Origin: a virus
Taxonomy: Duplodnaviria; Heunggongvirae; Uroviricota; Caudoviricetes
Virus record (IMG/VR): IMGVR_UViG_3300037466_000352
Length of the DNA: 64,000 bases
Strand: one strand, 5' to 3'
In this document: in pieces, positions 2,603 through 62,040 of the stretch
Layout: every line of letters begins with the position of its first letter
How positions within the stretch are numbered: position 1 is the first letter of the stretch
Notes under the pieces: generated by a model
What the model saw: the letters and a program-made list of their open reading frames with translations, nothing else
Database searches by the model: none
Told to the model about the DNA's origin: nothing
Position numbers and translations under genes: made by a program

Positions 2603-2675
2603 GGGTTGATAGTTTATCTGGCTAAAACACCGGACTCCAAACCCGGAGTGCAAGGTTCAAGTCCTTGTCGGCCCG
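2603..2675 (+). tRNA. tRNA-Trp (anticodon CCA); a genomic CCA follows at 2676-2678
   Basis: Hand-folded cloverleaf. Acceptor GGGTTGA/TCGGCCC with two G-U pairs; D-stem GTTT/AAAC; T-arm CAAGG-TTCAAGT-CCTTG; anticodon loop CTCCAAA. The anticodon stem has one A:C mismatch. Confidence 0.65.
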
Positions 2676-2923
2676 CCAAGATCATTCACAACTGCCGCTT
2701 GATGGCTAAGGAACTATCGTGTAACACGATCTGTATCACCATAGACATTTGAGAACACAGAACAGCAGTACCATTTCCCGTTGGTGGTCGGGATATAGTA
2801 ACCGCCTTCGCCCTGCAACCTTAACGGGTCGCGAGAGAACACCACACGGAGAGACGCAAAAGTTCGTCGATAGTCCGTGCAGCACGCAGGCAACCTTGAT
2901 AAACCTGAAGAGAAGTAGAGAAG

Positions 2924-36952: not shown

Positions 36953-37327
36953 ATGAGTGCGGAAGAAGAGAAGAAAGTCAGCAACACGAAGCTGGTAGTC
37001 ATTGACACCAAGACTCTCGTCGCTAAGTCGTTCGAAGGAAATTTCCCATGTGGCGAAGCCCACTTGCCGAACCCGAACGGCGAAGACGAGTACACGGCTG
37101 TCGAAATCACGGAACAGTTGAACGACTTCCTGAAAGCTGCTGACGGCGCTCGATACCGCGCTATTGCCGAAGCCGACAAGAAGGCCGCAATCGGAAAGAA
37201 GCTGGTTGAACTGACCAACGAATACGAAGGTTGGTTTGATCGTCTGGTTCCCGAAGAAGAATTCGATTCGTTCGGTTTTTTGAAAGCAACAAAACAGGTA
37301 GATAGTGAAGATGTCAAAACAATATGA
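36953..37327 (+). CDS. Hypothetical protein
   Basis: 124 aa ORF. Confidence 0.5.
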   Translation: MSAEEEKKVSNTKLVVIDTKTLVAKSFEGNFPCGEAHLPNPNGEDEYTAVEITEQLNDFLKAADGARYRAIAEADKKAAIGKKLVELTNEYEGWFDRLVPEEEFDSFGFLKATKQVDSEDVKTI

Positions 37328-38402
37328 TGTGGTGGTGTATCGCGGTCGGTTCCAAGGTTTCCATAACGCGCACCTTCAAACGATCCTCATGGGACTGAAG
37401 CTGGCGAAGAAAGTCATCATTGTGATTGGTAGTGCGAACGAACCGCGCACCTACTATCGCAATCCGTTCTTTGAGAACGAACGAATCGAGATGATTCGTG
37501 GCGCACTCGAAGAGCACTTCCGTCATGAAGACGTTTCGTTCGTATCTGTCGAAGATCACCCCGACGACGAACATTGGGCGTTCATGGTTCGCAAGGCAGT
37601 TCACGATCACATTCGACATGTATTGGATATCAAAGACCCATACGTGGCGCAGATCGGTTACAAGAAGGACGAGAATTGCGTACGCGATGTTTCACTCTTT
37701 CCGACGTGGGAATACGTCAATACGCCTCAATTCGAACCGCTCGACGCGACACAAGTCCGCGACATCTTCTTCAGCAAGCGTCCGTTGGGATTCCTTCGTG
37801 GCGTGTGTCCTGAATCTGTCATCCAATACCTGAAGGGTTTCCGCACAACGGAAGACTTCGCGAACATGATGGCTGAAAAGGAATACTGCGACAAATACAA
37901 GAAGCAGTTCGAACATCTCGAATATGCTCCCACGTTTGTCACTGGCGACAATATCGCATTCCAAGACGATACGGTGTTGCTGGTCAAGCGCAAGAACTTT
38001 CCCGGTAAGGGTCTGTGGGCGTGGCCTGCTGGCTTCTTCAATGCCGCTGATCGGGTGTCGAAAAGTGGTGAAATCGTGAAGGCCGACAAGTCTGTTTTCG
38101 ATTGCGCAGTTCGCGAACTCAGTGAAGAGACTAATGCCGGTGTCACGAAGGAACAGCTTCAAGAAGCACTGGTCGGCGAACAAATATTTGACGCAGAAGG
38201 CCGCGATCCGCGTGGACGAATCGTCACACATGCGTTCGTCTATAACTTCGACGACCAAGAAGTGTTCGCAGTCGAAGCCGCCGACGACGCGGAAGAAGTT
38301 CGACGCTTCCATATCTCGGAAGTGAATCGCCGCATGATGTACGCCGATCACTACAACATGTTCCTGCTGGCGCTCGATGCGTACTGCGACTCCAAGTTTT
38401 AA
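37305..38402 (+). CDS. nadM: Bifunctional NMN adenylyltransferase / Nudix ADP-ribose pyrophosphatase (NadM-Nudix)
   Basis: N-terminal GRFQGFHNAH (HxGH). C-terminal Nudix box REL-EETNAG. Confidence 0.85.
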   Translation: MKMSKQYDVVVYRGRFQGFHNAHLQTILMGLKLAKKVIIVIGSANEPRTYYRNPFFENERIEMIRGALEEHFRHEDVSFVSVEDHPDDEHWAFMVRKAVHDHIRHVLDIKDPYVAQIGYKKDENCVRDVSLFPTWEYVNTPQFEPLDATQVRDIFFSKRPLGFLRGVCPESVIQYLKGFRTTEDFANMMAEKEYCDKYKKQFEHLEYAPTFVTGDNIAFQDDTVLLVKRKNFPGKGLWAWPAGFFNAADRVSKSGEIVKADKSVFDCAVRELSEETNAGVTKEQLQEALVGEQIFDAEGRDPRGRIVTHAFVYNFDDQEVFAVEAADDAEEVRRFHISEVNRRMMYADHYNMFLLALDAYCDSKF

Positions 38403-38414
38403 GCCAACCACTAC

Positions 38415-39785
38415 ATGATGAACAACATAAACATCAACATTGCACTAGAACAAAACTTCATCCTCGAATCTGACTCGTACAAGTTCAGCCACATTCCCGA
38501 AATCTACCCCGAAGGCGCTGAAGCCCTGCACTCGTATCTGTCGGCCCGCGTGAAGGGTCAACGTGTGGTCCAGTTCGGCCTTCAGATGTGGATCAAGAAG
38601 AAGCTGTTGGCCCCGATCACCCGCGAGATGGTGGACGAAGCTGAAGACTTCATCAACAAGCACATCGGCCCGAACGCGTTCAACCGTCCTTTCTGGGAAC
38701 ACATCCTGAAGAAGTATGGCGGGTTCATTCCGCTGACTATCCGTGGTCTTCCCGAAGGCACGGTCACGAACAGCTACGACACGCTGATTACGGTCGAATG
38801 CGATGACCCGGTGGTGTTTCCGCTGGCGCAACACATCGAAGCTTCGCTGCAATCGGACATGTGGTACAGCACGACCATTGCGACCAACGACCTCGAAAAC
38901 TATGAAGTCGCCAAATCGCACTTCGACCTGTATTCGGACCAACCGTTCCTTCTGCCGTTCATGCTTCACGACTTCGGCGCACGTGGTGTGACCTGTGAAG
39001 AACAACGCCAGATTGGCGGTGCTGCGCACTTGCTGTTCTTCCAAGGTTCGGACACGATCAGCGGCATCCGTGCAGCGAATCTGTTCTATGGTTGCGAAAT
39101 GGCCGCGTATTCGGTTCGTGCCACGGAACATAGCATCCAGTGCGCCTACGGCCCGGAAGCCCAAGAAGCGTACATCTCGCGCGTTCTGACCGCACATGCG
39201 AAACCGGGCAACATCGTGTCGCTGGTGCTGGACGGATACAACGTCTGGCGCGAGTCAGAATTGCTGTGTACGAAGTTCAAGCAACAGATCATCGACAGTG
39301 GTGCGAAGATCGTATTCCGACCTGACTCGGGTGACATGTTCGAAGTGATTCCGCGTCTGCTGGAAATGCAAGCTAACGCGTTCGGCTTCACGGTCAACTC
39401 GAAGGGCAAGAAGGTCATCAACAACGTCGGCGTGATCCAAGGGGACGGTATCGATAAGACGACCTTCATGCTGCTGATGCAAAAGGTCGTGGCCCTCGGC
39501 TATGCCCCAGAATGCGTCGTGATGGGTTCCGGTGGCGGTCTTTTGCAGAAGTGCAACCGCGATACCCTGAAGTTCGCACAGAAGGCCGCAGCGGTCAAGA
39601 TCAACGGTCAGTGGGTTTCGATCTTCAAAGACCCGATCACCGATCCGGGTAAGAAGTCGAAGACCGGCATCCAAGATGATCCGCGATTCATCACGTTCTA
39701 CAACGTCGATGATGGTCTGCTGGTGGACGAATCGTTCGACGTGATCCGCGAACGTGCGTTGGCTGGCGCAGTGATCCGCAAATAA
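38415..39785 (+). CDS. nadV: Nicotinamide phosphoribosyltransferase (NAMPT/NadV)
   Basis: 456 aa. N-terminal DSYKFSH. Typical NAMPT length and motifs. Confidence 0.9.
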   Translation: MMNNININIALEQNFILESDSYKFSHIPEIYPEGAEALHSYLSARVKGQRVVQFGLQMWIKKKLLAPITREMVDEAEDFINKHIGPNAFNRPFWEHILKKYGGFIPLTIRGLPEGTVTNSYDTLITVECDDPVVFPLAQHIEASLQSDMWYSTTIATNDLENYEVAKSHFDLYSDQPFLLPFMLHDFGARGVTCEEQRQIGGAAHLLFFQGSDTISGIRAANLFYGCEMAAYSVRATEHSIQCAYGPEAQEAYISRVLTAHAKPGNIVSLVLDGYNVWRESELLCTKFKQQIIDSGAKIVFRPDSGDMFEVIPRLLEMQANAFGFTVNSKGKKVINNVGVIQGDGIDKTTFMLLMQKVVALGYAPECVVMGSGGGLLQKCNRDTLKFAQKAAAVKINGQWVSIFKDPITDPGKKSKTGIQDDPRFITFYNVDDGLLVDESFDVIRERALAGAVIRK

Positions 39786-53132: not shown

Positions 53133-54410
53133 ATGTCAAAGAATTTTTGGCAGATGCGTTCGCAGCTTGACGCCCTGAAGCTGGTCACTGAGGCATTGAC
53201 CTCGGTCGATAAGGGCGATCATCTCGAAATCACGCCGTCACACATGAAGAAGCCGATGTACAAGGGCACGGCTATCGAGCATCGCAACAACCCGGAACAC
53301 TACGGCGCAGATGGTCATGCTGCACTCGATGCACATGTACGCGAAGTCGTGAAGAATCCCGAAAAGAACCAAGCGTTCAAATCGGCAGACAGCTACACGA
53401 AGGAAAACCTCGGCCACGGATACGAGTTCCATGACGACAAGCCGAAGTCATCGCTGCGCAAACAGTATGTGATCGGCAAGACATACGACCTCGCTACGCA
53501 GAATCACCCTGCATACAAGAAGGCCGTCTTTGAGGGCTATGCGAAGCATCGTCCTGACATCGTGAAGCAGACCAAGGCAACGGATTACGACTCATTGGTA
53601 CAGGGTTCGTACAAGCACGTCGCCAAGGAAACCAACAAACAGTTCGAACATCTGCCGGTCAAGACGCAGTTCCACGACGGCCACATGGGCTATCACAACA
53701 GCGGCGAGATGATGCGTGACATTCATGGTCACAATAACCTCACGGTCTATCGTGGTGGAGAAGAGCACGAATTCCTGCATCACAAGGACAAGACCGGTCT
53801 GAATGAGAACGAGAAGTTCCGTGCAGTCCACGACTACTATGGTCACGCGATCCACGGCAACCAGTTCGGCCCGAAGGGCGAAGAAGTGGCGTGGCATTCG
53901 CACCGCAAGATGTTCTCGCATGGTGCAGCAGTTGCAATGACATCCGAGACACGCGGCCAAAACAGCTACGTGAACTACACGCACGCGAACCTCGGCACCC
54001 AGAAAGAGATGGAAACGCATCGTGCAGCCAAGCGTGCATCGCTGAATGCGGGCGATCATGAAGGTGCAGCGAAGGCCGATGAACACCTTCGTGAAGCTGG
54101 TGGCAAGTGGAACTATGCGAAGCAAGCTTCGGTCGCACTGCCACACGAAATGCTGCATCCTCACTTCGACGGTCACGCACCATCGAGCATTGCACACATG
54201 CTGCACGATCCGGCTGCGAAAGAGAATCCGACATATGATGCACACAAGGATCATCTCGGCCTCGTAGACCTCGCACGTCACCACAACACGTCCTCACACA
54301 CGCACATGGGCGGTGGTGTTCTTGACCGCGAGAATGCACATGCGGACCTGAAGCACATTGCCGGTGTCCACGGATACACGAAACTCTCTCACAACCCCTT
54401 CAAGGGATAA
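53133..54410 (+). CDS. His-rich hypothetical protein (425 aa)
   Basis: About 11% His. Repetitive HxxH/HGH segments similar in style to 46256..47134. Confidence 0.55.
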   Translation: MSKNFWQMRSQLDALKLVTEALTSVDKGDHLEITPSHMKKPMYKGTAIEHRNNPEHYGADGHAALDAHVREVVKNPEKNQAFKSADSYTKENLGHGYEFHDDKPKSSLRKQYVIGKTYDLATQNHPAYKKAVFEGYAKHRPDIVKQTKATDYDSLVQGSYKHVAKETNKQFEHLPVKTQFHDGHMGYHNSGEMMRDIHGHNNLTVYRGGEEHEFLHHKDKTGLNENEKFRAVHDYYGHAIHGNQFGPKGEEVAWHSHRKMFSHGAAVAMTSETRGQNSYVNYTHANLGTQKEMETHRAAKRASLNAGDHEGAAKADEHLREAGGKWNYAKQASVALPHEMLHPHFDGHAPSSIAHMLHDPAAKENPTYDAHKDHLGLVDLARHHNTSSHTHMGGGVLDRENAHADLKHIAGVHGYTKLSHNPFKG

Positions 54411-54448
54411 TTGACAAAGCTGGTCGTCTGTGTTACGTTCGGACGACC
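54411..54448 (+). promoter_or_regulatory. Possible promoter TTGACA-N17-TACGTT with inverted repeat GGTCGTC/GACGACC around the -10
   Basis: TTGACAAAGCTGGTCGTCTGTGTTACGTTCGGACGACC. Confidence 0.35.
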
Positions 54449-54473
54449 TAAACCCTTGCAAGGACTCACGAAC

Positions 54474-54650
54474 ATGACAAACAGTACCAACGTTACCCCG
54501 AAGGCGAAGAAGATTCTCGACGACATCCTCGAAGAACTGAAGGATTCGGATGAACCAACAGAATCGCATCTTCCGCAAGAAATTTTCGACCTCGATAAAG
54601 CAACACTGTTGGCAATTGTCTACAGGTTGGTTGCGCGAGTTCGCGATTGA
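54474..54650 (+). CDS. Hypothetical small acidic protein (58 aa)
   Basis: Trimmed to ATG 54474 (MTNSTNV...) with RBS aagga. Confidence 0.4.
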   Translation: MTNSTNVTPKAKKILDDILEELKDSDEPTESHLPQEIFDLDKATLLAIVYRLVARVRD

Positions 54651-54677
54651 TGGTATGATCGCGTTTGTCGATCCGAG

Positions 54678-54706
54678 AAAGGGGGCTTCGGCCCCCTTTT
54701 CTTTTC
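54678..54706 (+). terminator. Rho-independent terminator
   Basis: AAGGGGGC-TTCG-GCCCCCTT followed by TTCTTTT. Confidence 0.85.
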
Positions 54707-54729
54707 CAAGTCTGTAAAATCAAAGAGGA

Positions 54730-55233
54730 TTGATTACGATGAAATCACTACTTGCAGCAATCTTGATGGCCCTGTCGATTCACATCGCAGTGCCGAAAGA
54801 CAACCCGCCACAGCTTCAACCAACGGTTCAGCACGACATCAACTGTCTGGCAGAGAACGTCTACTATGAAGCCCGTGGCGAACCCGAGGCTGGTCAAGTC
54901 GCGGTCGCTGATGTGACCCTGAACCGCACACAGGCCAATGGTTTTCCTAAGACGGTATGCGGCGTGGTTCACGAACAACGTGACCACAAGTGCCAATTCT
55001 CGTGGGTATGCTGGCGCAAGCGTCCGCCTATCGATAAGAATTCCCAACAGTGGGTCAAGGCGAGCAATATTGCCATCACTGTCTTGCTTTTCCGTTCAGG
55101 ATCGGATACAATGTTAAAACAGTCGGCGCTGTTCTATCACGCCAACTACGTTCACCCCGTCTGGGCGAAGAAAATGAAGTTCATCAAGAAGATTGGTGGA
55201 CACCTGTTCTACACGAAGCAAACGAACATCTGA
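54730..55233 (+). CDS. SleB-like cell-wall hydrolase with a signal peptide
   Basis: 167 aa. Signal peptide, then SleB-domain motifs (VADVTLNR, PKTVCGVV, QFSW). Confidence 0.7.
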   Translation: MITMKSLLAAILMALSIHIAVPKDNPPQLQPTVQHDINCLAENVYYEARGEPEAGQVAVADVTLNRTQANGFPKTVCGVVHEQRDHKCQFSWVCWRKRPPIDKNSQQWVKASNIAITVLLFRSGSDTMLKQSALFYHANYVHPVWAKKMKFIKKIGGHLFYTKQTNI

Positions 55234-55907
55234 TGATTTTTCAAAGTGAGATTCAACATCGCGGTACTTTCCCTTGTGAGTACCCCGATAGCGTAGTGAA
55301 GAACGAAACCATGTTCTTCAACTGCGACCTAGATTATGCGTACAAGCACGGGCACGACATCACACGTCACTTCCTCGATGGTCTTCCCGAAGACTGGAAA
55401 TTGGATGATGTCGTGCTCGACAGCCGGGTACATATGCTGATGCCGGGTTGGTATCCGTGCATTCCTGGCTGGCACCATGACGATGTGCCGCGCAGCACGC
55501 CTACCGGCCAACCGAACTACGAGAACCCCGAATATCACGCCGAACACCTGATCGGACTGGTGAACGGAAGTCTCGCGCCGACAGAATTTGCACTCGGTCG
55601 ATTCGAGATGTCTGAACCCGACATCAATTCAACGATCTATCAGGTATGGCACAAGGAAGTGCAACGTCAGCTTCACGTTGCCATGTGTCTCGATTTTAAC
55701 AATCCGGTCGTCACGCAGAAGTTCGCTGAATCTGGTGAGTACATCCAATTCGACGCACACGCGTTCCATACCGGAACCAAGGCAGTCGGCAACGGCTGGC
55801 GCTGGTTCATCCGTCTGTCACGCAATACCGACCGGGTGAAGTACATCACAAACGAAATCCGTCACCAAGTCCAAGTGTACATGGACGACCCGACCCAAGG
55901 CTGGTAA
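55233..55907 (+). CDS. Putative 2OG-Fe(II) oxygenase-superfamily protein
   Basis: Trimmed to ATG 55233 (TGATG overlap). GWHHDD (HxD) and a distal AFHTG His. Confidence 0.4.
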   Translation: MIFQSEIQHRGTFPCEYPDSVVKNETMFFNCDLDYAYKHGHDITRHFLDGLPEDWKLDDVVLDSRVHMLMPGWYPCIPGWHHDDVPRSTPTGQPNYENPEYHAEHLIGLVNGSLAPTEFALGRFEMSEPDINSTIYQVWHKEVQRQLHVAMCLDFNNPVVTQKFAESGEYIQFDAHAFHTGTKAVGNGWRWFIRLSRNTDRVKYITNEIRHQVQVYMDDPTQGW

Positions 55908-56237
55908 ATGACATATCTGACAAAAGAAGAGATTGTAGACGAACTTTTTGCTGCGTTGACCGAAGAAGACAAGCGCTCGCTGAAGACATATTACAAGTCC
56001 GAAGACGAACTCGGAATCTTGCATCACGGCTACGGCACACACATCCGCAACACATACAAGCTGTGGGAAGCAGCGAATCCGCTGACTCACGACTGGTTCA
56101 AAGACTGCGCGTTCGCTGAACGCGATGGTGTCAAGCACGCCTATATGATTGATGGCGTCGATCATCACCCGCAGCATCCCGATCAGGTGTCATTCGACAT
56201 CATCAAGGCCGTTTGGCACAAGGTAGTCGATGTCTGA
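55908..56237 (+). CDS. Hypothetical protein
   Basis: 109 aa ORF. Confidence 0.5.
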   Translation: MTYLTKEEIVDELFAALTEEDKRSLKTYYKSEDELGILHHGYGTHIRNTYKLWEAANPLTHDWFKDCAFAERDGVKHAYMIDGVDHHPQHPDQVSFDIIKAVWHKVVDV

Positions 56238-56454
56238 AGAGAAGTGGATAGAAGCAGGGCCGTTGCCGAACGGGCACTACCTGTTCTACAAAGAAAACGA
56301 AGTCGGTGGTCGCACCTACATGACCGATGAATGTGGTTGTGGTGTCGTGATCTGGGATACGGCGATCACGGATTATCACACCCTGTTGGCCGCAATTGTT
56401 CATGAAGACCATTTGCGTATCAAAGAGTTTTACGAGAAAGAGCATGCAAGCTGA
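56230..56454 (+). CDS. Hypothetical protein
   Basis: 74 aa ORF. Confidence 0.45.
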   Translation: MSEEKWIEAGPLPNGHYLFYKENEVGGRTYMTDECGCGVVIWDTAITDYHTLLAAIVHEDHLRIKEFYEKEHAS

Positions 56455-56719
56455 AGTACAAGAAGTCCACGCAACAGACGAATTTCTGATTACCAAGGAA
56501 TTCGCATCGGCAGAACAGTTCTCGATGTTCATCGAAGAGACAGCCATCAAAGAAGGTATGGACCTGATCGATGTCATTCTGAATTACTGCGAAGAGAAAG
56601 ACATCGACGTTGACGTTACCGCCAAACTCGTCACCAAGTCACTCAAAGAAAAACTCGCCGTCGAATTCCAAGAACGGAAGATGATGCGCTCCGAATCCGG
56701 CACACTGGAAGACCTGTGA
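56444..56719 (+). CDS. Hypothetical acidic protein
   Basis: Trimmed to ATG 56444 (MQAEVQE...). Confidence 0.45.
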   Translation: MQAEVQEVHATDEFLITKEFASAEQFSMFIEETAIKEGMDLIDVILNYCEEKDIDVDVTAKLVTKSLKEKLAVEFQERKMMRSESGTLEDL

Positions 56720-56849
56720 GTTGGAACAACGTTATACCGTGGTCCTATTTCCACAAGTTGGACCATCTCAAACTTGCACACATATCGTGCGCGTTCGTCA
56801 ATGAAGTTGATATTGGTGAACTTCGAAGCGATTGGTGCAACTTCTACTG

Positions 56850-57344
56850 ATGCTTTCATTCAAAGAATTCCTGCAAGAGAAGTACGGTACGACCGGAACC
56901 TATGCAGCCCTGAAGTTCGATCAACCGTCCACGGATGACATCGAAGCTTATCAGGCACACAACAAGATTCCGAACCCGGTCCCAGCGGACAAGCTACACG
57001 TAACATTGCTGTATTCGCGTAGACACATGGCCGGGTTCAAACCGCGCGGGCGACTAGAATCGCTCATAAAGGCTCGCGTCGCCGGGTTCGATGTCTGGGA
57101 TACCCAAGACGGAAAGAAGGCACTGGTGGCCCGTTTGGACGCCCCGGAACTCGTTGCACGCCATCGCGAACTGATGGACAAGTACAACGGGACTTACGAT
57201 TTCCCAGAATACAAGCCGCACACCACGTTGTCATATGATGTCGGCCCAGATTTCGATCACCAGAACCTTCCTCCATTTGGTCCTGTCCTCACGCTCGACA
57301 ACGAGTTCGGTGAAGACCTCGACCTCGATTGGAAGGCTGATTGA
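56850..57344 (+). CDS. 2H phosphoesterase-superfamily protein (LigT / 2',3'-cyclic phosphodiesterase-like)
   Basis: Two H-x-T-x motifs (HVTLLY and HTTLSY) about 80 aa apart. Confidence 0.65.
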   Translation: MLSFKEFLQEKYGTTGTYAALKFDQPSTDDIEAYQAHNKIPNPVPADKLHVTLLYSRRHMAGFKPRGRLESLIKARVAGFDVWDTQDGKKALVARLDAPELVARHRELMDKYNGTYDFPEYKPHTTLSYDVGPDFDHQNLPPFGPVLTLDNEFGEDLDLDWKAD

Positions 57345-57357
57345 ACAAGAAACACCA

Positions 57358-57750
57358 ATGAAACTCATTGAACAAATTCGCCAAGCAGAACGAACCCTTG
57401 AAACACGTCTCGCACAAGAAAAGCGAGATGCAGAAGAATCCCAGAAGAAGCTTGACGACGAAGACCGTCTCGAAGGTGCGAAGCGGGCCAAGACCGATAT
57501 CAAGGAAATCAGCAACAAGATTCTCTGCGCCGTCGATGACCAGTTAAAGTTCTACGTACATCCGATTGGTCGTGGTCGCGACAAACCGATGACACCATTC
57601 GAAGAAGGGTACTCGAATTATCTGATTCAGCACTACCTCTCTGAAGGTGTTCAAGCTGTGCTGACGAAGACTCCGCTACGTCGCAACACACCGGCTGGTC
57701 CATCGACTTCGCACGACTACAACATCCGTTTCTCATGGGATATCGAGTAG
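57358..57750 (+). CDS. Hypothetical protein
   Basis: Trimmed to ATG 57358 (MKLIEQIRQ...). Confidence 0.5.
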   Translation: MKLIEQIRQAERTLETRLAQEKRDAEESQKKLDDEDRLEGAKRAKTDIKEISNKILCAVDDQLKFYVHPIGRGRDKPMTPFEEGYSNYLIQHYLSEGVQAVLTKTPLRRNTPAGPSTSHDYNIRFSWDIE

Positions 57751-58022
57751 TCAACGTCGCGACGACGAGAGACTATGATGTCTATATCGGTCGCGGAACG
57801 AAGTGGGGCAATCCGTTCATCATTGGACGCGATGGTTCCCGCGATGAAGTGATTGCCAAACACGCCGAGTGGATCGAGTACGGTGAAGGGAGTTATCTCT
57901 TGACGCATCTTCATGAACTGTATGGCAAGACCCTTGGCTGTCACTGCGCACCAAAACCATGTCACGGCTGCACTCTCGCGCGACTGGCTATCAAGTATCA
58001 CATCCCAACCTTTTTCGAATGA
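57735..58022 (+). CDS. DUF4326-like protein
   Basis: RGTKWGNPF...CHCAPKPCHG motif pattern. Confidence 0.5.
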   Translation: MGYRVVNVATTRDYDVYIGRGTKWGNPFIIGRDGSRDEVIAKHAEWIEYGEGSYLLTHLHELYGKTLGCHCAPKPCHGCTLARLAIKYHIPTFFE

Positions 58023-58615
58023 CACCATACCAAGTCGGCAAAGCATACATAGCCCTGAAGGCGCACTTCACCAAGGACTCGTATGACGTAATCAAGTCGA
58101 ATGGACGGATCAACTATCCGCGTGCCAAGTTCGAAGAACGGAAGGACCGCCATCGTTGCGAGAAGATGGCTATCAACATGCGCGACGAAGAGATTGTCAA
58201 GTTCTTCGTCGCCAACTTCTCACGCAAGCCAGACTATAGCGGACTGTTTGATGACCAGTCCGAGACACGCTACAGGGAATGGTGCGGCTACATCGAATCG
58301 CTGTCGTACAACTATGGGAATGAAGTCAAGTCATTGCTACTTGATGCAAAAGATTCCCAGATGTGTTATAATGACGTTTTCGTTGGTGCTGAAGGTCAAC
58401 ATCCTCCCGTTCTCAATGCGTACATGGGGAAGCAAATCTCCATCGAGACGTTCATCATTCTGGACCGCCTAAATAGGTTTACGGACAACATAACAGTCGA
58501 TGTGGTGTCAGAAGACACGCTTCGCATCGCTCGCAAGTACAGTCCCTTCCTGAAGGTCGATCTGGAAACCTATGACAACATCACAAGAACCGTCAGAGAA
58601 CAAGTGTTCGAATGA
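58019..58615 (+). CDS. Helicase loader (T4 gp59 homologue)
   Basis: Trimmed to ATG 58019. Matches T4 gp59 segments (YDVIK..., ISIETFIILDRLNRF vs ISFETFILLDSFLNI). Confidence 0.7.
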   Translation: MTPYQVGKAYIALKAHFTKDSYDVIKSNGRINYPRAKFEERKDRHRCEKMAINMRDEEIVKFFVANFSRKPDYSGLFDDQSETRYREWCGYIESLSYNYGNEVKSLLLDAKDSQMCYNDVFVGAEGQHPPVLNAYMGKQISIETFIILDRLNRFTDNITVDVVSEDTLRIARKYSPFLKVDLETYDNITRTVREQVFE

Positions 58616-58640
58616 GGTAAAAGAACTGCAAGAGGAAGTC

Positions 58641-58772
58641 ATGTACTTGCAGGCAGAGAACGACAAGCTGTGGGCCAAGATCGAAGAGATGGAAGGTAAC
58701 TACGCGTCGCTGTTCGACCGCATCCGGTCATGGCCGTTCATTAAGATCAACGTTCCCGCTTTAGCGCAGTAA
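58641..58772 (+). CDS. Small coiled-coil protein (uncertain start)
   Basis: Track ORF 58572..58772. The first ATG after the gp59 stop is 58641. Confidence 0.3.
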   Translation: MYLQAENDKLWAKIEEMEGNYASLFDRIRSWPFIKINVPALAQ

Positions 58773-58939
58773 TGAGTAAGACAAGGCACTACCGTCCCGA
58801 AGAACGAAGCATTCATCGGGCGAAAATGGTCGCAGATAAGGCGACTAAATATAAGCATGACATCTTCAAAGTCACAGAAGAACCAGACGATGAAGACGAG
58901 TACGTGATGATCGCCGAAGATTTTGGCGACATTGAATAG
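58772..58939 (+). CDS. Hypothetical small protein (55 aa), not in the track
   Basis: ATG 58772 overlapping the upstream stop. Acidic C-terminus. Confidence 0.35.
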   Translation: MSKTRHYRPEERSIHRAKMVADKATKYKHDIFKVTEEPDDEDEYVMIAEDFGDIE

Positions 58940-59036
58940 TAGTACAACTCTTTGAGATTTTCCTTCATGAAGACCATACACGTCGAAACATACGTTTCAC
59001 AAATCAAAACACACGTAGACATAGGTAGAAATACAA

Positions 59037-60029
59037 ATGGCAAAGTCCCTCTCGGAAATGCGCAAGTCGCGCGGCAACTTCGAACAACTTACCAAAGAAA
59101 TCGAGAAGCAAGGTAAGAAGAACTACGACAAAGAAGATGACCGCTTCTGGCAGTGCGCAGTAGACAAAGCTGGCAACGGCCAAGCTGTCGTCCGATTCCT
59201 GCCCGCCCCGCAAGGCGAAGACCTTCCGTTCGTCCGTATGTGGTCGCACGGTTTCCAAGGTCCGACTGGCAAGTGGTATATCGAAAACTCGCGTACCACG
59301 CTTGGTGAAAGCGATCCGGTAACGGAACTGAACAACGAACTCTGGGCCTCGAAGGTCAAAGAGAACGAAGAAATCGCTCGCAAACAAAAGCGCAAGCTGT
59401 CCTACTACAGCAACGTGCTTATCATCTCTGATCCGGCCAACCCGGAAAACGAAGGTCAAGTGAAGATTTTCCGCTACGGCGCGAAGATTTTCGAGAAGCT
59501 TGAAGCAGCAATGAAGCCGGAATTCGATGACGATCCGACCTTCAACCCGTTTGACTTCTGGGACGGTGCGAACTTCCGCCTGAAGATCACGAAGAAAGAT
59601 GGTTTCGCGAACTTCGACAAGTCCTCGCTCGCAGAGTCGAAGCCCCTGTCGGATGACGACGAAGAACTGCAAAAGATTTGGGACAAGTGTCACTCACTTG
59701 CAGCGATTGTCGCACCGGATCAGTTCAAGAGCTACGACGATCTGAAGAAGCGCCTGAACTTCGTCCTCGCAACTGGCGCACCCGGCAAGAATGCCGAACA
59801 GTCGGAAATCGATCAAGACGACGAAGCATTCATCCGTCAGCAATCACGTTCGACCGCTGACCGCCTGAAGAAAGAAACCAAGGACGCACCGAACGCAGAG
59901 CAATTCGATGACGTTCCACCGTTCGATACGGAAAAGCCGAAGACGACCGCTGCGAAGTCCACGGCCAAGAAGGTCGAAGAAGAAGCAGACGACGACCTCG
60001 AATACTTCCGAAAGCTTGCTGGTGAGTAA
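59037..60029 (+). CDS. Single-stranded DNA-binding protein (T4 gp32 homologue)
   Basis: 330 aa. KAGNGQAVVRFLPAP...GKWYIE matches the gp32 core. Acidic C-terminal tail. Confidence 0.9.
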   Translation: MAKSLSEMRKSRGNFEQLTKEIEKQGKKNYDKEDDRFWQCAVDKAGNGQAVVRFLPAPQGEDLPFVRMWSHGFQGPTGKWYIENSRTTLGESDPVTELNNELWASKVKENEEIARKQKRKLSYYSNVLIISDPANPENEGQVKIFRYGAKIFEKLEAAMKPEFDDDPTFNPFDFWDGANFRLKITKKDGFANFDKSSLAESKPLSDDDEELQKIWDKCHSLAAIVAPDQFKSYDDLKKRLNFVLATGAPGKNAEQSEIDQDDEAFIRQQSRSTADRLKKETKDAPNAEQFDDVPPFDTEKPKTTAAKSTAKKVEEEADDDLEYFRKLAGE

Positions 60030-60088
60030 TCAACAGGTACAGCCTACGGGCTGTATTTGACAGATACAAATCATAAGCTGTAAAACAC

Positions 60089-60113
60089 AAAAGCCCGCGA
60101 AAGCGGGCTTTTT
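60089..60113. terminator. Bidirectional Rho-independent terminator between convergent gene 32 and the minus-strand operon
   Basis: AAAAGCCCGC-GAAA-GCGGGCTTTTT with T/A runs on both sides. Confidence 0.85.
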
Positions 60114-60123
60114 CTTTGGTGCT

Positions 60124-62040
60124 TTAGAACAGCACCGTATTCATCATCTGCCTGTCGAAGTAGGATTCGCGGGCGCGTGGTTCGGCTTTCACCGGCACTA
60201 CCTTTGGACCCGATTGTTGTGGCTGTGAGATGTTCTGTTGAACCACAACCTTCGGCGCGTCGTGATTCGCGCTATGGTTCGCAACTTGCTGTACGTCATG
60301 TGTCGGTGCTGGCTTCACATCGACCTTGCCATGTGGGCCGCCCATCCATTCCGGCATCCACGACTTATCGATCTTGTTCCAGTTCTCATAGACACCATCT
60401 GCGGCCCCAGCAATACCGCCCACAGCACCGCCGACCATCGTCCCTACACCCGGAATGAACGAACCGACTGCGGCCCCCGTAGCGCCCCAATCTGCCGCTT
60501 TACGTGCGACATCTGCACCGATGGCTAGTTGGTCATGCCCGGTCTTCTCAAGTTCGTCGTGTGCGTATCCGAGTCCCTTGTCTGCTGCGTATCCAACGAG
60601 CGCCGCTGCACCGCCCTTCAGTAGTCCCTTTCCAAGACCCTTCCCTAACTTCGCAAGCTTCGAAAGTGAACGCACGCCCTTCTTTGCACCAAACAAGGCA
60701 GGCAGAAGGCTTGTCGCATCACCGATTACTTCGGATGTTATCGACGAATCGGAACCTTCTTTTGCTGCTGCGTCACCTTGCGGATTGTCATCGATCTTCA
60801 ACGTAGGATCGGCTGACCGAGGACCCACGTCGTTATCAGGAAGGTCCGACTTCGGCTTGAACGCATCCGTGATAGTTGGCTTCGGTACGAACGTCGGATA
60901 CACATCAACCGCACCACGAACTGCCGATGCAATCGGCGATTCTTGCGTCTTCAGTGGCGCATGTGGATTGCGCGGTTTAACCTTGATCGGCGATTCGACT
61001 TCACGATGTTCAACGTCTTGTACAGCGAGTTCCTTGTGCGCGATCTTCGGTGCAGGAAGAAGATGCGGTTCGTGATACTCAAGCGCCTTCTGGTCAAGCG
61101 GTACGTGTGGCTTTGGATCAACTAGCGCACCTGTCGGGCCATGCGGACCCGGCAACTGTGGATGCAACTCTGCGCCAGACGATGAAGGTCCAGGCAACTC
61201 TGGATTGATCGGAACTGCACTGCGACCTTTCGGACCATCGAGACGATCTTGCATGTATCGCGGCGGCTGTTCGTCTTCGGCCTTCTTGACCATCTTCACG
61301 ATCAAGTTTTCGACATGAAGGTTCTCGATCTTCGATGGGAATCCACCCGAACCCTTTCCTTCACCCGAACCGCCCGCGATCTGTGATGCCATCGCGTTTG
61401 CTTTGTCCTTCTCTGCTTCGCCCGTGATCTGTTCACCCGCCTCTCGAATCAGCTTTTCGGCAGTGCCTTGGTTCTGTAGTTCGTGAAGCGGATTCAGTAC
61501 ACCCGCACCGTTCTTTTCAAGACCCGCCAGCTTTCTGAACAAAGGGCTTTCAAGATCGTCTTGTGTCGGCTTGAAGAACTTGGCTGCACGTTGCGAGAAC
61601 TCTTGACGAAGAACACCGCCTTTCTTCTTTGCATTCGGATCGGTGTGCTTCATTCCGATAGATGCAAGATGTTCCAGTTCTCCCTTGGCAGGATGGTCGC
61701 CATCGATTTCGTTCAGGCGAACGACGGCTGCTTTGAATTCCTTGTGAAGTGCATCAAAGTCCTTGGCGTCGGCGCGACGAAGCTTGTAGAAGTTCTCCGT
61801 GATACCACGGAACACTTCACGTTGTTCATCGGTGGCCGTCTTCATCCATTCTTCTTGATCCTTCACCGAGTCAGTGAATTGACGATACGCTTCGTCGATC
61901 TGCTGAACGAATTTGTCATCCTTGCCGTTATTCTTCGACACCTGATTGCGACGAAGCAACGCTCCGATCTTCCCGATGTAGGCATTCATGTCCTCATTCG
62001 AGATTCGAGATGTCTGTAATGATGGTTGCATCGCCGCCAT
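60124..62040 (-). CDS. Large hypothetical protein (638 aa) with a Pro-rich linker and a C-terminal glycine-zipper segment
   Basis: Long minus-strand ORF. GxxxG repeats in GVGTMVGGAVGGIAGAADG. The N-terminal half is helical. Confidence 0.65.
   Translation of the reverse strand: MAAMQPSLQTSRISNEDMNAYIGKIGALLRRNQVSKNNGKDDKFVQQIDEAYRQFTDSVKDQEEWMKTATDEQREVFRGITENFYKLRRADAKDFDALHKEFKAAVVRLNEIDGDHPAKGELEHLASIGMKHTDPNAKKKGGVLRQEFSQRAAKFFKPTQDDLESPLFRKLAGLEKNGAGVLNPLHELQNQGTAEKLIREAGEQITGEAEKDKANAMASQIAGGSGEGKGSGGFPSKIENLHVENLIVKMVKKAEDEQPPRYMQDRLDGPKGRSAVPINPELPGPSSSGAELHPQLPGPHGPTGALVDPKPHVPLDQKALEYHEPHLLPAPKIAHKELAVQDVEHREVESPIKVKPRNPHAPLKTQESPIASAVRGAVDVYPTFVPKPTITDAFKPKSDLPDNDVGPRSADPTLKIDDNPQGDAAAKEGSDSSITSEVIGDATSLLPALFGAKKGVRSLSKLAKLGKGLGKGLLKGGAAALVGYAADKGLGYAHDELEKTGHDQLAIGADVARKAADWGATGAAVGSFIPGVGTMVGGAVGGIAGAADGVYENWNKIDKSWMPEWMGGPHGKVDVKPAPTHDVQQVANHSANHDAPKVVVQQNISQPQQSGPKVVPVKAEPRARESYFDRQMMNTVLF

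Follow-up and report, generated by a model that had tools for sequence, protein, structure and literature searches.

A probable canonical Acb1-family anti-CBASS phosphodiesterase encoded between genes 33 and 59 of an uncultured T4-like phage

Sequence and structural modelling together indicate, with a probability that we put at about 0.9, that the gene at 56850..57344 (+) of a 64-kb stretch of phage DNA (hereafter the window) encodes a bona fide, canonical C-terminal-lid enzyme of the Acb1 family, a group of phage proteins that degrade the cyclic-nucleotide signals on which CBASS, a bacterial immune system, relies. It is carried by a T4-like phage of roughly 170 kb that is uncultured. Acb1 activity was discovered in the product of T4 gene 57B (PMC9117128), and by analogy with that protein the function is most likely metal-independent cleavage of adenosine-containing cyclic di- and trinucleotides, which would blunt CBASS. 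The original prediction, made from the DNA letters, had described an Acb1-like viral 2H phosphoesterase at this position; sequence, key residues and predicted fold all agree with that description, which can now be sharpened to membership of the Pfam family PF23474.

The acb1 open reading frame starts with an ATG at 56850 on the + strand, closes with a TGA whose last base is 57344, and encodes a 164-aa 2H phosphodiesterase, assigned to the Acb1 family through Pfam, solved structures in the PDB, fold matching and an AlphaFold2 model. A mechanical ORF list extends the gene to an upstream TTG at 56832; homologues within the lineage have their M-L-[ST]-F N-terminus where this gene has its ATG, and 56850 is therefore the right start. 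The first catalytic HxT motif, H50-V51-T52 (56997..57005, +), opens the hexapeptide HVTLLY (residues 50-55; H50 codon CAC at 56997-56999), and the second, H124-T125-T126 (57219..57227, +), opens HTTLSY (residues 124-129; H124 codon CAC at 57219-57221). Both motifs are present in the reading frame as had been described, and the measured distance of 74 residues between H50 and H124 fits the earlier figure of about 80. A C-terminal lid segment, EDLDLDWKAD, occupies 57312..57341 (+).

Residues 15-163 of the protein match positions 1-143 of the 144-position PF23474 profile (Anti-CBASS protein Acb1) with 130.7 bits and an E-value of 4.3e-38, a full-length match above the curated gathering score of 27 bits. 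The protein also matches PHROG 755 (E 5e-43), which carries the label “RNA ligase”. The best sequence match among solved structures is Erwinia phage FBB1 Acb1 (7T26/7T27; E 2.6e-27, residues 16-162), followed far behind by the enzyme of Burkholderia phage BCSR5 (9Q2G/9Q2Y; E 3.9e-5). Judged by the Pfam, PHROG 755 and 7T26 E-values, the sequence match to Acb1 is far beyond chance. A search of NCBIfam returned no family for the Acb1 protein or its neighbours, and an exact-sequence look-up of the 164-aa protein returned no record. Among 50,697 phage records, tblastn detected a homologue in 1475, the majority from T4-like phages infecting enterobacteria, Acinetobacter, Vibrio and Aeromonas. These homologues all share less than 60% identity with the window protein, the closest being that of the Ralstonia jumbo phage RsoM2USA at 47%.

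The functional residues of T4 Acb1 have been defined in detail (PMC9117128). Its active site is an HxT/HxT tetrad formed by H44, T46, H113 and T115, so that the paired HxT motifs which the original prediction had ascribed to this enzyme are correct. Four aromatic residues, Y12, W74, F107 and W147, stack on the bases of the ligand, E141 contacts the adenine N6, which accounts for the enzyme's requirement for one or more adenosines in its substrate, and a C-terminal lid of residues 145-152 closes on the bound ligand. All nine of these T4 residues are identical in the window protein when it is aligned with T4 and FBB1 Acb1. The tetrad corresponds to H50 (T4 H44), T52 (T46), H124 (H113) and T126 (T115), the base-stacking aromatics to Y18 (Y12), W83 (W74), F118 (F107) and W161 (W147), and the adenine-contacting glutamate to E155 (E141), with E155 and W161 both lying within the lid segment.

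The tetrad and the aromatic positions were also compared across 48 metagenomic homologues. Histidine occupies positions 50 and 124 and threonine position 52 in all 48, and position 126 is threonine in 46 and serine in two. Among the base-stacking positions, Y or F occurs at position 18, W or F at position 83, and F, Y or H at position 118; tryptophan is found at position 161 in 44 of the 48. The first catalytic histidine is preceded by 49 residues, which is the median for these homologues, compared with 43 in T4.

An AlphaFold2 model of the window protein, computed from a homologue alignment without the T4 sequence, reached a mean pLDDT of 90.9 and a pTM of 0.82. Only the first ~10 and the last ~4 residues were of low confidence. 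An N-terminal helix at residues 4-12 has a pLDDT of 54-77, and the extreme C-terminus falls to 52, a low value that would be consistent with a flexible lid. Foldseek searches of the PDB with this model returned 7T27 and 7T26 as the top hits (target-normalised TM 0.77 and 0.83; 36-37% identity), followed by the BCSR5 phosphodiesterase at a TM of about 0.7 and by E. coli LigT, Usb1 and other 2H enzymes at about 0.5. The model and its matches describe a compact 2H fold, to which the EDLDLDW motif adds a C-terminal lid. Homology and the fold match together suggest that H50 and H124 are juxtaposed in the folded protein. A comparison of the predicted structure with Acb1 and LigT had been proposed beforehand as a check, and it falls on the side of Acb1 (TM 0.77-0.83 versus about 0.5).

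The window protein has in common with T4 57B (NP_049750.1) and FBB1 Acb1 the profile, the 2H fold, the HxT/HxT tetrad, the four aromatics, the glutamate and the lid tryptophan. It is about 41-43% identical to these two proteins and of similar size (164 versus 152 aa); its N-terminal segment is six residues longer, and three residues are inserted behind the first motif.

Sequence comparisons further indicate that acb1 is under purifying selection. Near-identical copies were found on two contigs from independent metagenomes (L008 and L009), which overall share about 97% identity with the window; four nucleotides of acb1 differ, of which three changes are synonymous and one is A46S, leaving the proteins 99% identical. 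Against relatives from the same lineage with 54-65% identity, Nei-Gojobori dN/dS values for acb1 range from 0.10 to 0.27, values that are rough because dS is near saturation. The gene occupies the same position in five related contigs, and the gene order around it is the same on all of them, comprising L008 and L009 together with L003, L004 and L006, which are 120-177 kb long and derive from other samples. A more distant homologue on a further contig, L007, is located elsewhere.

By analogy with the T4 and FBB1 enzymes, from which the substrates, the chemistry and the anti-CBASS phenotype are all extrapolated, the protein would bind adenosine-containing cyclic di- and trinucleotide immune signals, such as 3'3'-cGAMP, cUA, cAAA, cAAG and probably 2'3'-c-di-AMP, and would hold the ligand in a U-shaped pocket. 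Y18, W83, F118 and W161 would stack on the ligand bases, E155 would read the adenine N6, and the C-terminal lid would shut over the bound molecule. Metal-independent acid-base catalysis is then expected from the H50/T52 and H124/T126 tetrad, with the 2'-OH attacking the 3'-5' bond on the 3' side of an adenosine and giving a 2',3'-cyclic phosphate intermediate and finally a linear product with a 3'-phosphate. Under the model established for T4 and FBB1 (PMC9117128), the CBASS second messenger would be gone before its effectors are activated, and we propose that the phage would therefore escape abortive infection. A substrate range as broad as that of T4 Acb1 cannot be read from the sequence.

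The breadth of that range bears on the alternative that comes closest to our reading, an Acb1-family enzyme whose range is narrowed or shifted, either sparing 2'3'-c-di-AMP as PDE-9 does, and so not triggering Panoptes, or acting on another class of signal. Viral 2H phosphodiesterases fall into structural groups with differing substrate ranges, and T4 Acb1 is among the most promiscuous, its cleavage of 2'3'-c-di-AMP being the trigger of Panoptes; PDE-9 of phage BCSR5 belongs to the Acb1 group, carries an N-terminal lid and largely spares 2'3'-c-di-AMP (preprint 10.1101/2025.08.21.671373). The same source reports that preferences vary through core differences, not readable from sequence, within this one structural group, to which the window protein also belongs, and the distance from T4 and FBB1 Acb1 leaves room for such a shift. 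The two proteins are nearly equal in length (165 aa in PDE-9 versus 164), their catalytic histidines nearly coincide (H50/H123 versus H50/H124), and both have 49 residues before the first histidine, compared with 43 in T4. However, that N-terminal length is merely the family median, FBB1 Acb1 is a much closer match (E 2.6e-27) than PDE-9 (E 3.9e-5; 23% identity in the alignment), and all T4 ligand-contact residues are identical in the window protein. In PDE-9 the lid is formed by the N-terminal 15 residues and the C-terminal E-x-L-D-L-D-W motif is missing, whereas the window protein keeps this motif. The retained motif, the 23% identity to PDE-9 and the N-terminus of median length therefore argue for a canonical C-terminal-lid Acb1, and we regard a narrowed or shifted range as improbable. 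A dual-lid variant, with an extra PDE-9-like lid at the N-terminus, was also considered and set aside, the N-terminal length being that of the family median and the region being of low confidence in the model.

Readings outside the Acb1 family fare worse still. The original prediction had allowed for a role in RNA repair, in which a LigT/ThpR-type 2',3'-cyclic phosphodiesterase or 2'-5' RNA ligase would heal RNA ends, for example those of tRNAs after attack by an anticodon nuclease. E. coli LigT (5LDI; LigT/ThpR) is likewise a 2H-superfamily protein whose pseudo-symmetric beta core carries two HxT motifs, Foldseek relates it to our model with an E-value of about 6e-6, and the protein gives a weak match to PF13563 (2_5_RNA_ligase2). 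Yet in the Pfam search this match stays below its gathering cut-off (24.3 versus 27 bits), as does that to PF02834 (LigT_PEase; 12.8 versus 23.3 bits), so that the protein belongs to neither profile, and the structural similarity to LigT is limited to a TM of about 0.5 at 17-19% identity. LigT is without the Acb1 lid and base-stacking set, whereas the window protein has the C-terminal lid and every one of the ligand-contact residues specific to Acb1. The name “RNA ligase”, attached to PHROG 755, to T4 57B in RefSeq and to many homologue entries, speaks for RNA repair at face value; on PHROG 755 it is a legacy label, and on T4 57B it is older than the demonstration that 57B is Acb1 (PMC9117128). 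Among the neighbouring genes examined there is no polynucleotide kinase or RNA ligase gene, and we consider RNA repair very unlikely. A 2'-5' oligoadenylate phosphodiesterase of the NS2/VP3 type found in eukaryotic viruses, or an inactive 2H relic, would have the 2H fold and HxT motifs in common with the window protein, and Foldseek did return very weak matches to rotavirus VP3 and MHV ns2 (E 0.07-0.4). These matches lie at noise level (TM about 0.42-0.47), and nothing implicates an OAS-like 2'-5' oligoadenylate pathway in the biology of this phage; a relic is excluded because the catalytic tetrad is intact and invariant and dN/dS is well below 1. We give either version almost no credence. The poxvirus cGAMP phosphodiesterase of penguinpox (9BKQ) is another 2H enzyme of viral origin, one that breaks down a cyclic dinucleotide immune signal of the cGAS type; it matches only distantly (E 5e-4; 16-17% identity), is larger, at about 200 aa, and takes its lid from the opposite terminus.

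The genes around acb1 all lie on the + strand and are tightly packed, with overlapping or near-abutting starts and stops. The left border of the region is a gp33-like late-transcription coactivator (56444..56719, +; PF16805 E 9.6e-17, PHROG 254), for which a 91-aa start was picked by analogy with L008 and L009, and the right border is the gp59 helicase loader (58019..58615, +; PHROG 269 E 1.1e-46, Pfam T4_Gp59_N). Two small ORFs (58572-58939, +) and the gp32 ssDNA-binding protein (59037..60029, +; PHROG 224 E 8.7e-112, Pfam gp32) follow. Hence the earlier placement of the gene just upstream of gp59 and gp32 is borne out, both being downstream on the same strand. Between gp33 and gp59 lies an insert of roughly 1.3 kb with four genes, set within the conserved 33-59-32 module: a 44-aa ORF, acb1, a 130-aa protein and a DUF4326 protein. 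Genes 33 and 59 abut in T4, where acb1 (57B) is found between 57A and ipI, and acb1 in the window therefore sits at a different plastic site than in T4. The neighbouring genes, our sole guide in this respect, suggest early or middle expression of acb1.

The small ORF upstream of acb1 (56716..56850, +) starts with GTG and encodes 44 amino acids. Its GTG and the gp33 stop codon overlap in GTGA, and its own stop runs into the acb1 ATG in TGATG, an arrangement that suggests translational coupling of this ORF into acb1. It is likely to be a real small gene, as a comparison of related contigs would indicate: a clear homologue with the pattern MSWNNV[IL]PWS...ELRxDWCN lies uncalled at 4695-4922 of L003, and a weaker counterpart is present in L004.

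Directly downstream of acb1, a conserved 130-aa protein is encoded at 57358..57750 (+), and it adjoins acb1 in each of the five related contigs. Searches of Pfam, PHROG and NCBIfam gave no match for it. Two relatives were found by a word-indexed search and six representative clusters by an exhaustive HMMER search of 1.84 billion proteins. Its AlphaFold2 model (pLDDT 90.2) consists of a helix of roughly 58 residues (3-60) followed by a small beta-alpha-beta-beta domain; this model had no PDB match at E <= 0.001, and in BFVD it matched only uncharacterised viral proteins at low TM. The last gene of the insert encodes a 95-aa DUF4326 protein (57735..58022, +; PF14216, 85.9 bits), the stop of which overlaps the gp59 ATG. 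DUF4326 is found in the insert of L004, L006, L008 and L009 and is absent from that of L003. From comparative genomics only, proteins of this family have been proposed to be rhodanese-phosphatase-type enzymes that, in conflicts between viruses and their hosts, would target phosphates linked to the ribose of ADPr derivatives (PMC9503650).

Elsewhere in the window, a cytidylyltransferase-like (NMNAT-type) and NUDIX fusion is encoded at 37311-38402 (+), adjoining a nicotinamide phosphoribosyltransferase gene (NAMPT_N + NAPRTase) at 38415-39785 (+). A preprint (bioRxiv 10.1101/2024.02.11.579819) describes this gene pair as NARP2, an NAD+ reconstitution pathway with which phages counter defences that deplete NAD+. 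By analogy, the NARP2-like NAD+ salvage pair, 18 kb upstream of acb1, would be a second counter-defence module in the window.

A broader hypothesis, which we hold to be doubtful, is that the gp33-gp59 insert as a whole is a counter-defence islet conserved in the lineage. The 130-aa protein would then be a new anti-defence factor, and the DUF4326 protein would process signals or ends, acting either on ribose-linked phosphates of ADPr-derived signals or on the 3'-phosphate or 2',3'-cyclic-phosphate ends left by Acb1. Together with the NARP2-like pair, such an islet might oppose several nucleotide-signalling or NAD-depleting defences at once.

A scan for sigma-70 promoters found no + strand site in 54000-60300, with counts equal to the shuffled expectation, and the T4 late-promoter consensus TATAAATA has zero occurrences in the 64-kb window. 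Between the end of gp32 and a convergent gene on the - strand (60124-62040) there is a perfect 10-bp GC-rich hairpin at 60089-60112 (both strands; AAAAGCCCGC-GAAA-GCGGGCTTTT). With runs of A and T on its flanks, it resembles an intrinsic terminator that would work in both directions. Upstream of gp33, a SleB-type cell-wall hydrolase with a signal-peptide-like N-terminus (Pfam Hydrolase_2; 54739-55233, +) and a 224-aa protein of the conserved family PHROG 1843 (E 1.8e-59; 55233-55907, +) are both syntenic in the related contigs. The sole tRNA in the window is a tRNA-Trp with anticodon CCA at 2603-2678 (+).

The T4-like genes in the window comprise a gp41-type helicase, a gp61-type primase, NrdA/B, DNA ligase, gp33, gp59 and gp32, and the GC content is about 51%. 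Megablast of 55000-60000 returned no match among the 50,697 phage records, and the phage is therefore without a close relative in that collection. For gp32, identity to the proteins in the searched phage records, among them those of cyanomyoviruses and of the Methylophilales phage Melnitz, does not exceed 48%. The absence of a near DNA match, the divergent gp32 and the lack of TATAAATA in the window point to a deep-branching, uncultured T4-like lineage.

Little is added here to the basic understanding of Acb1, which has been defined biochemically and structurally since 2022 and has both a Pfam family and homologues in 1475 phage records. What is mildly new is its carrier, an uncultured T4-like phage whose protein shares no more than 47% identity with the Acb1 proteins of the searched phage records, and its location between gp33 and gp59. 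The labels “RNA ligase” and “hypothetical protein” on homologues are wrong, and the gene can be annotated as an anti-CBASS nuclease. The 130-aa protein and the DUF4326 protein beside acb1 are reasonable candidates for anti-defence screening. The maintenance of Acb1 under purifying selection in an uncultured and distant T4-like lineage would imply that the hosts of these phages use CBASS-type signalling.
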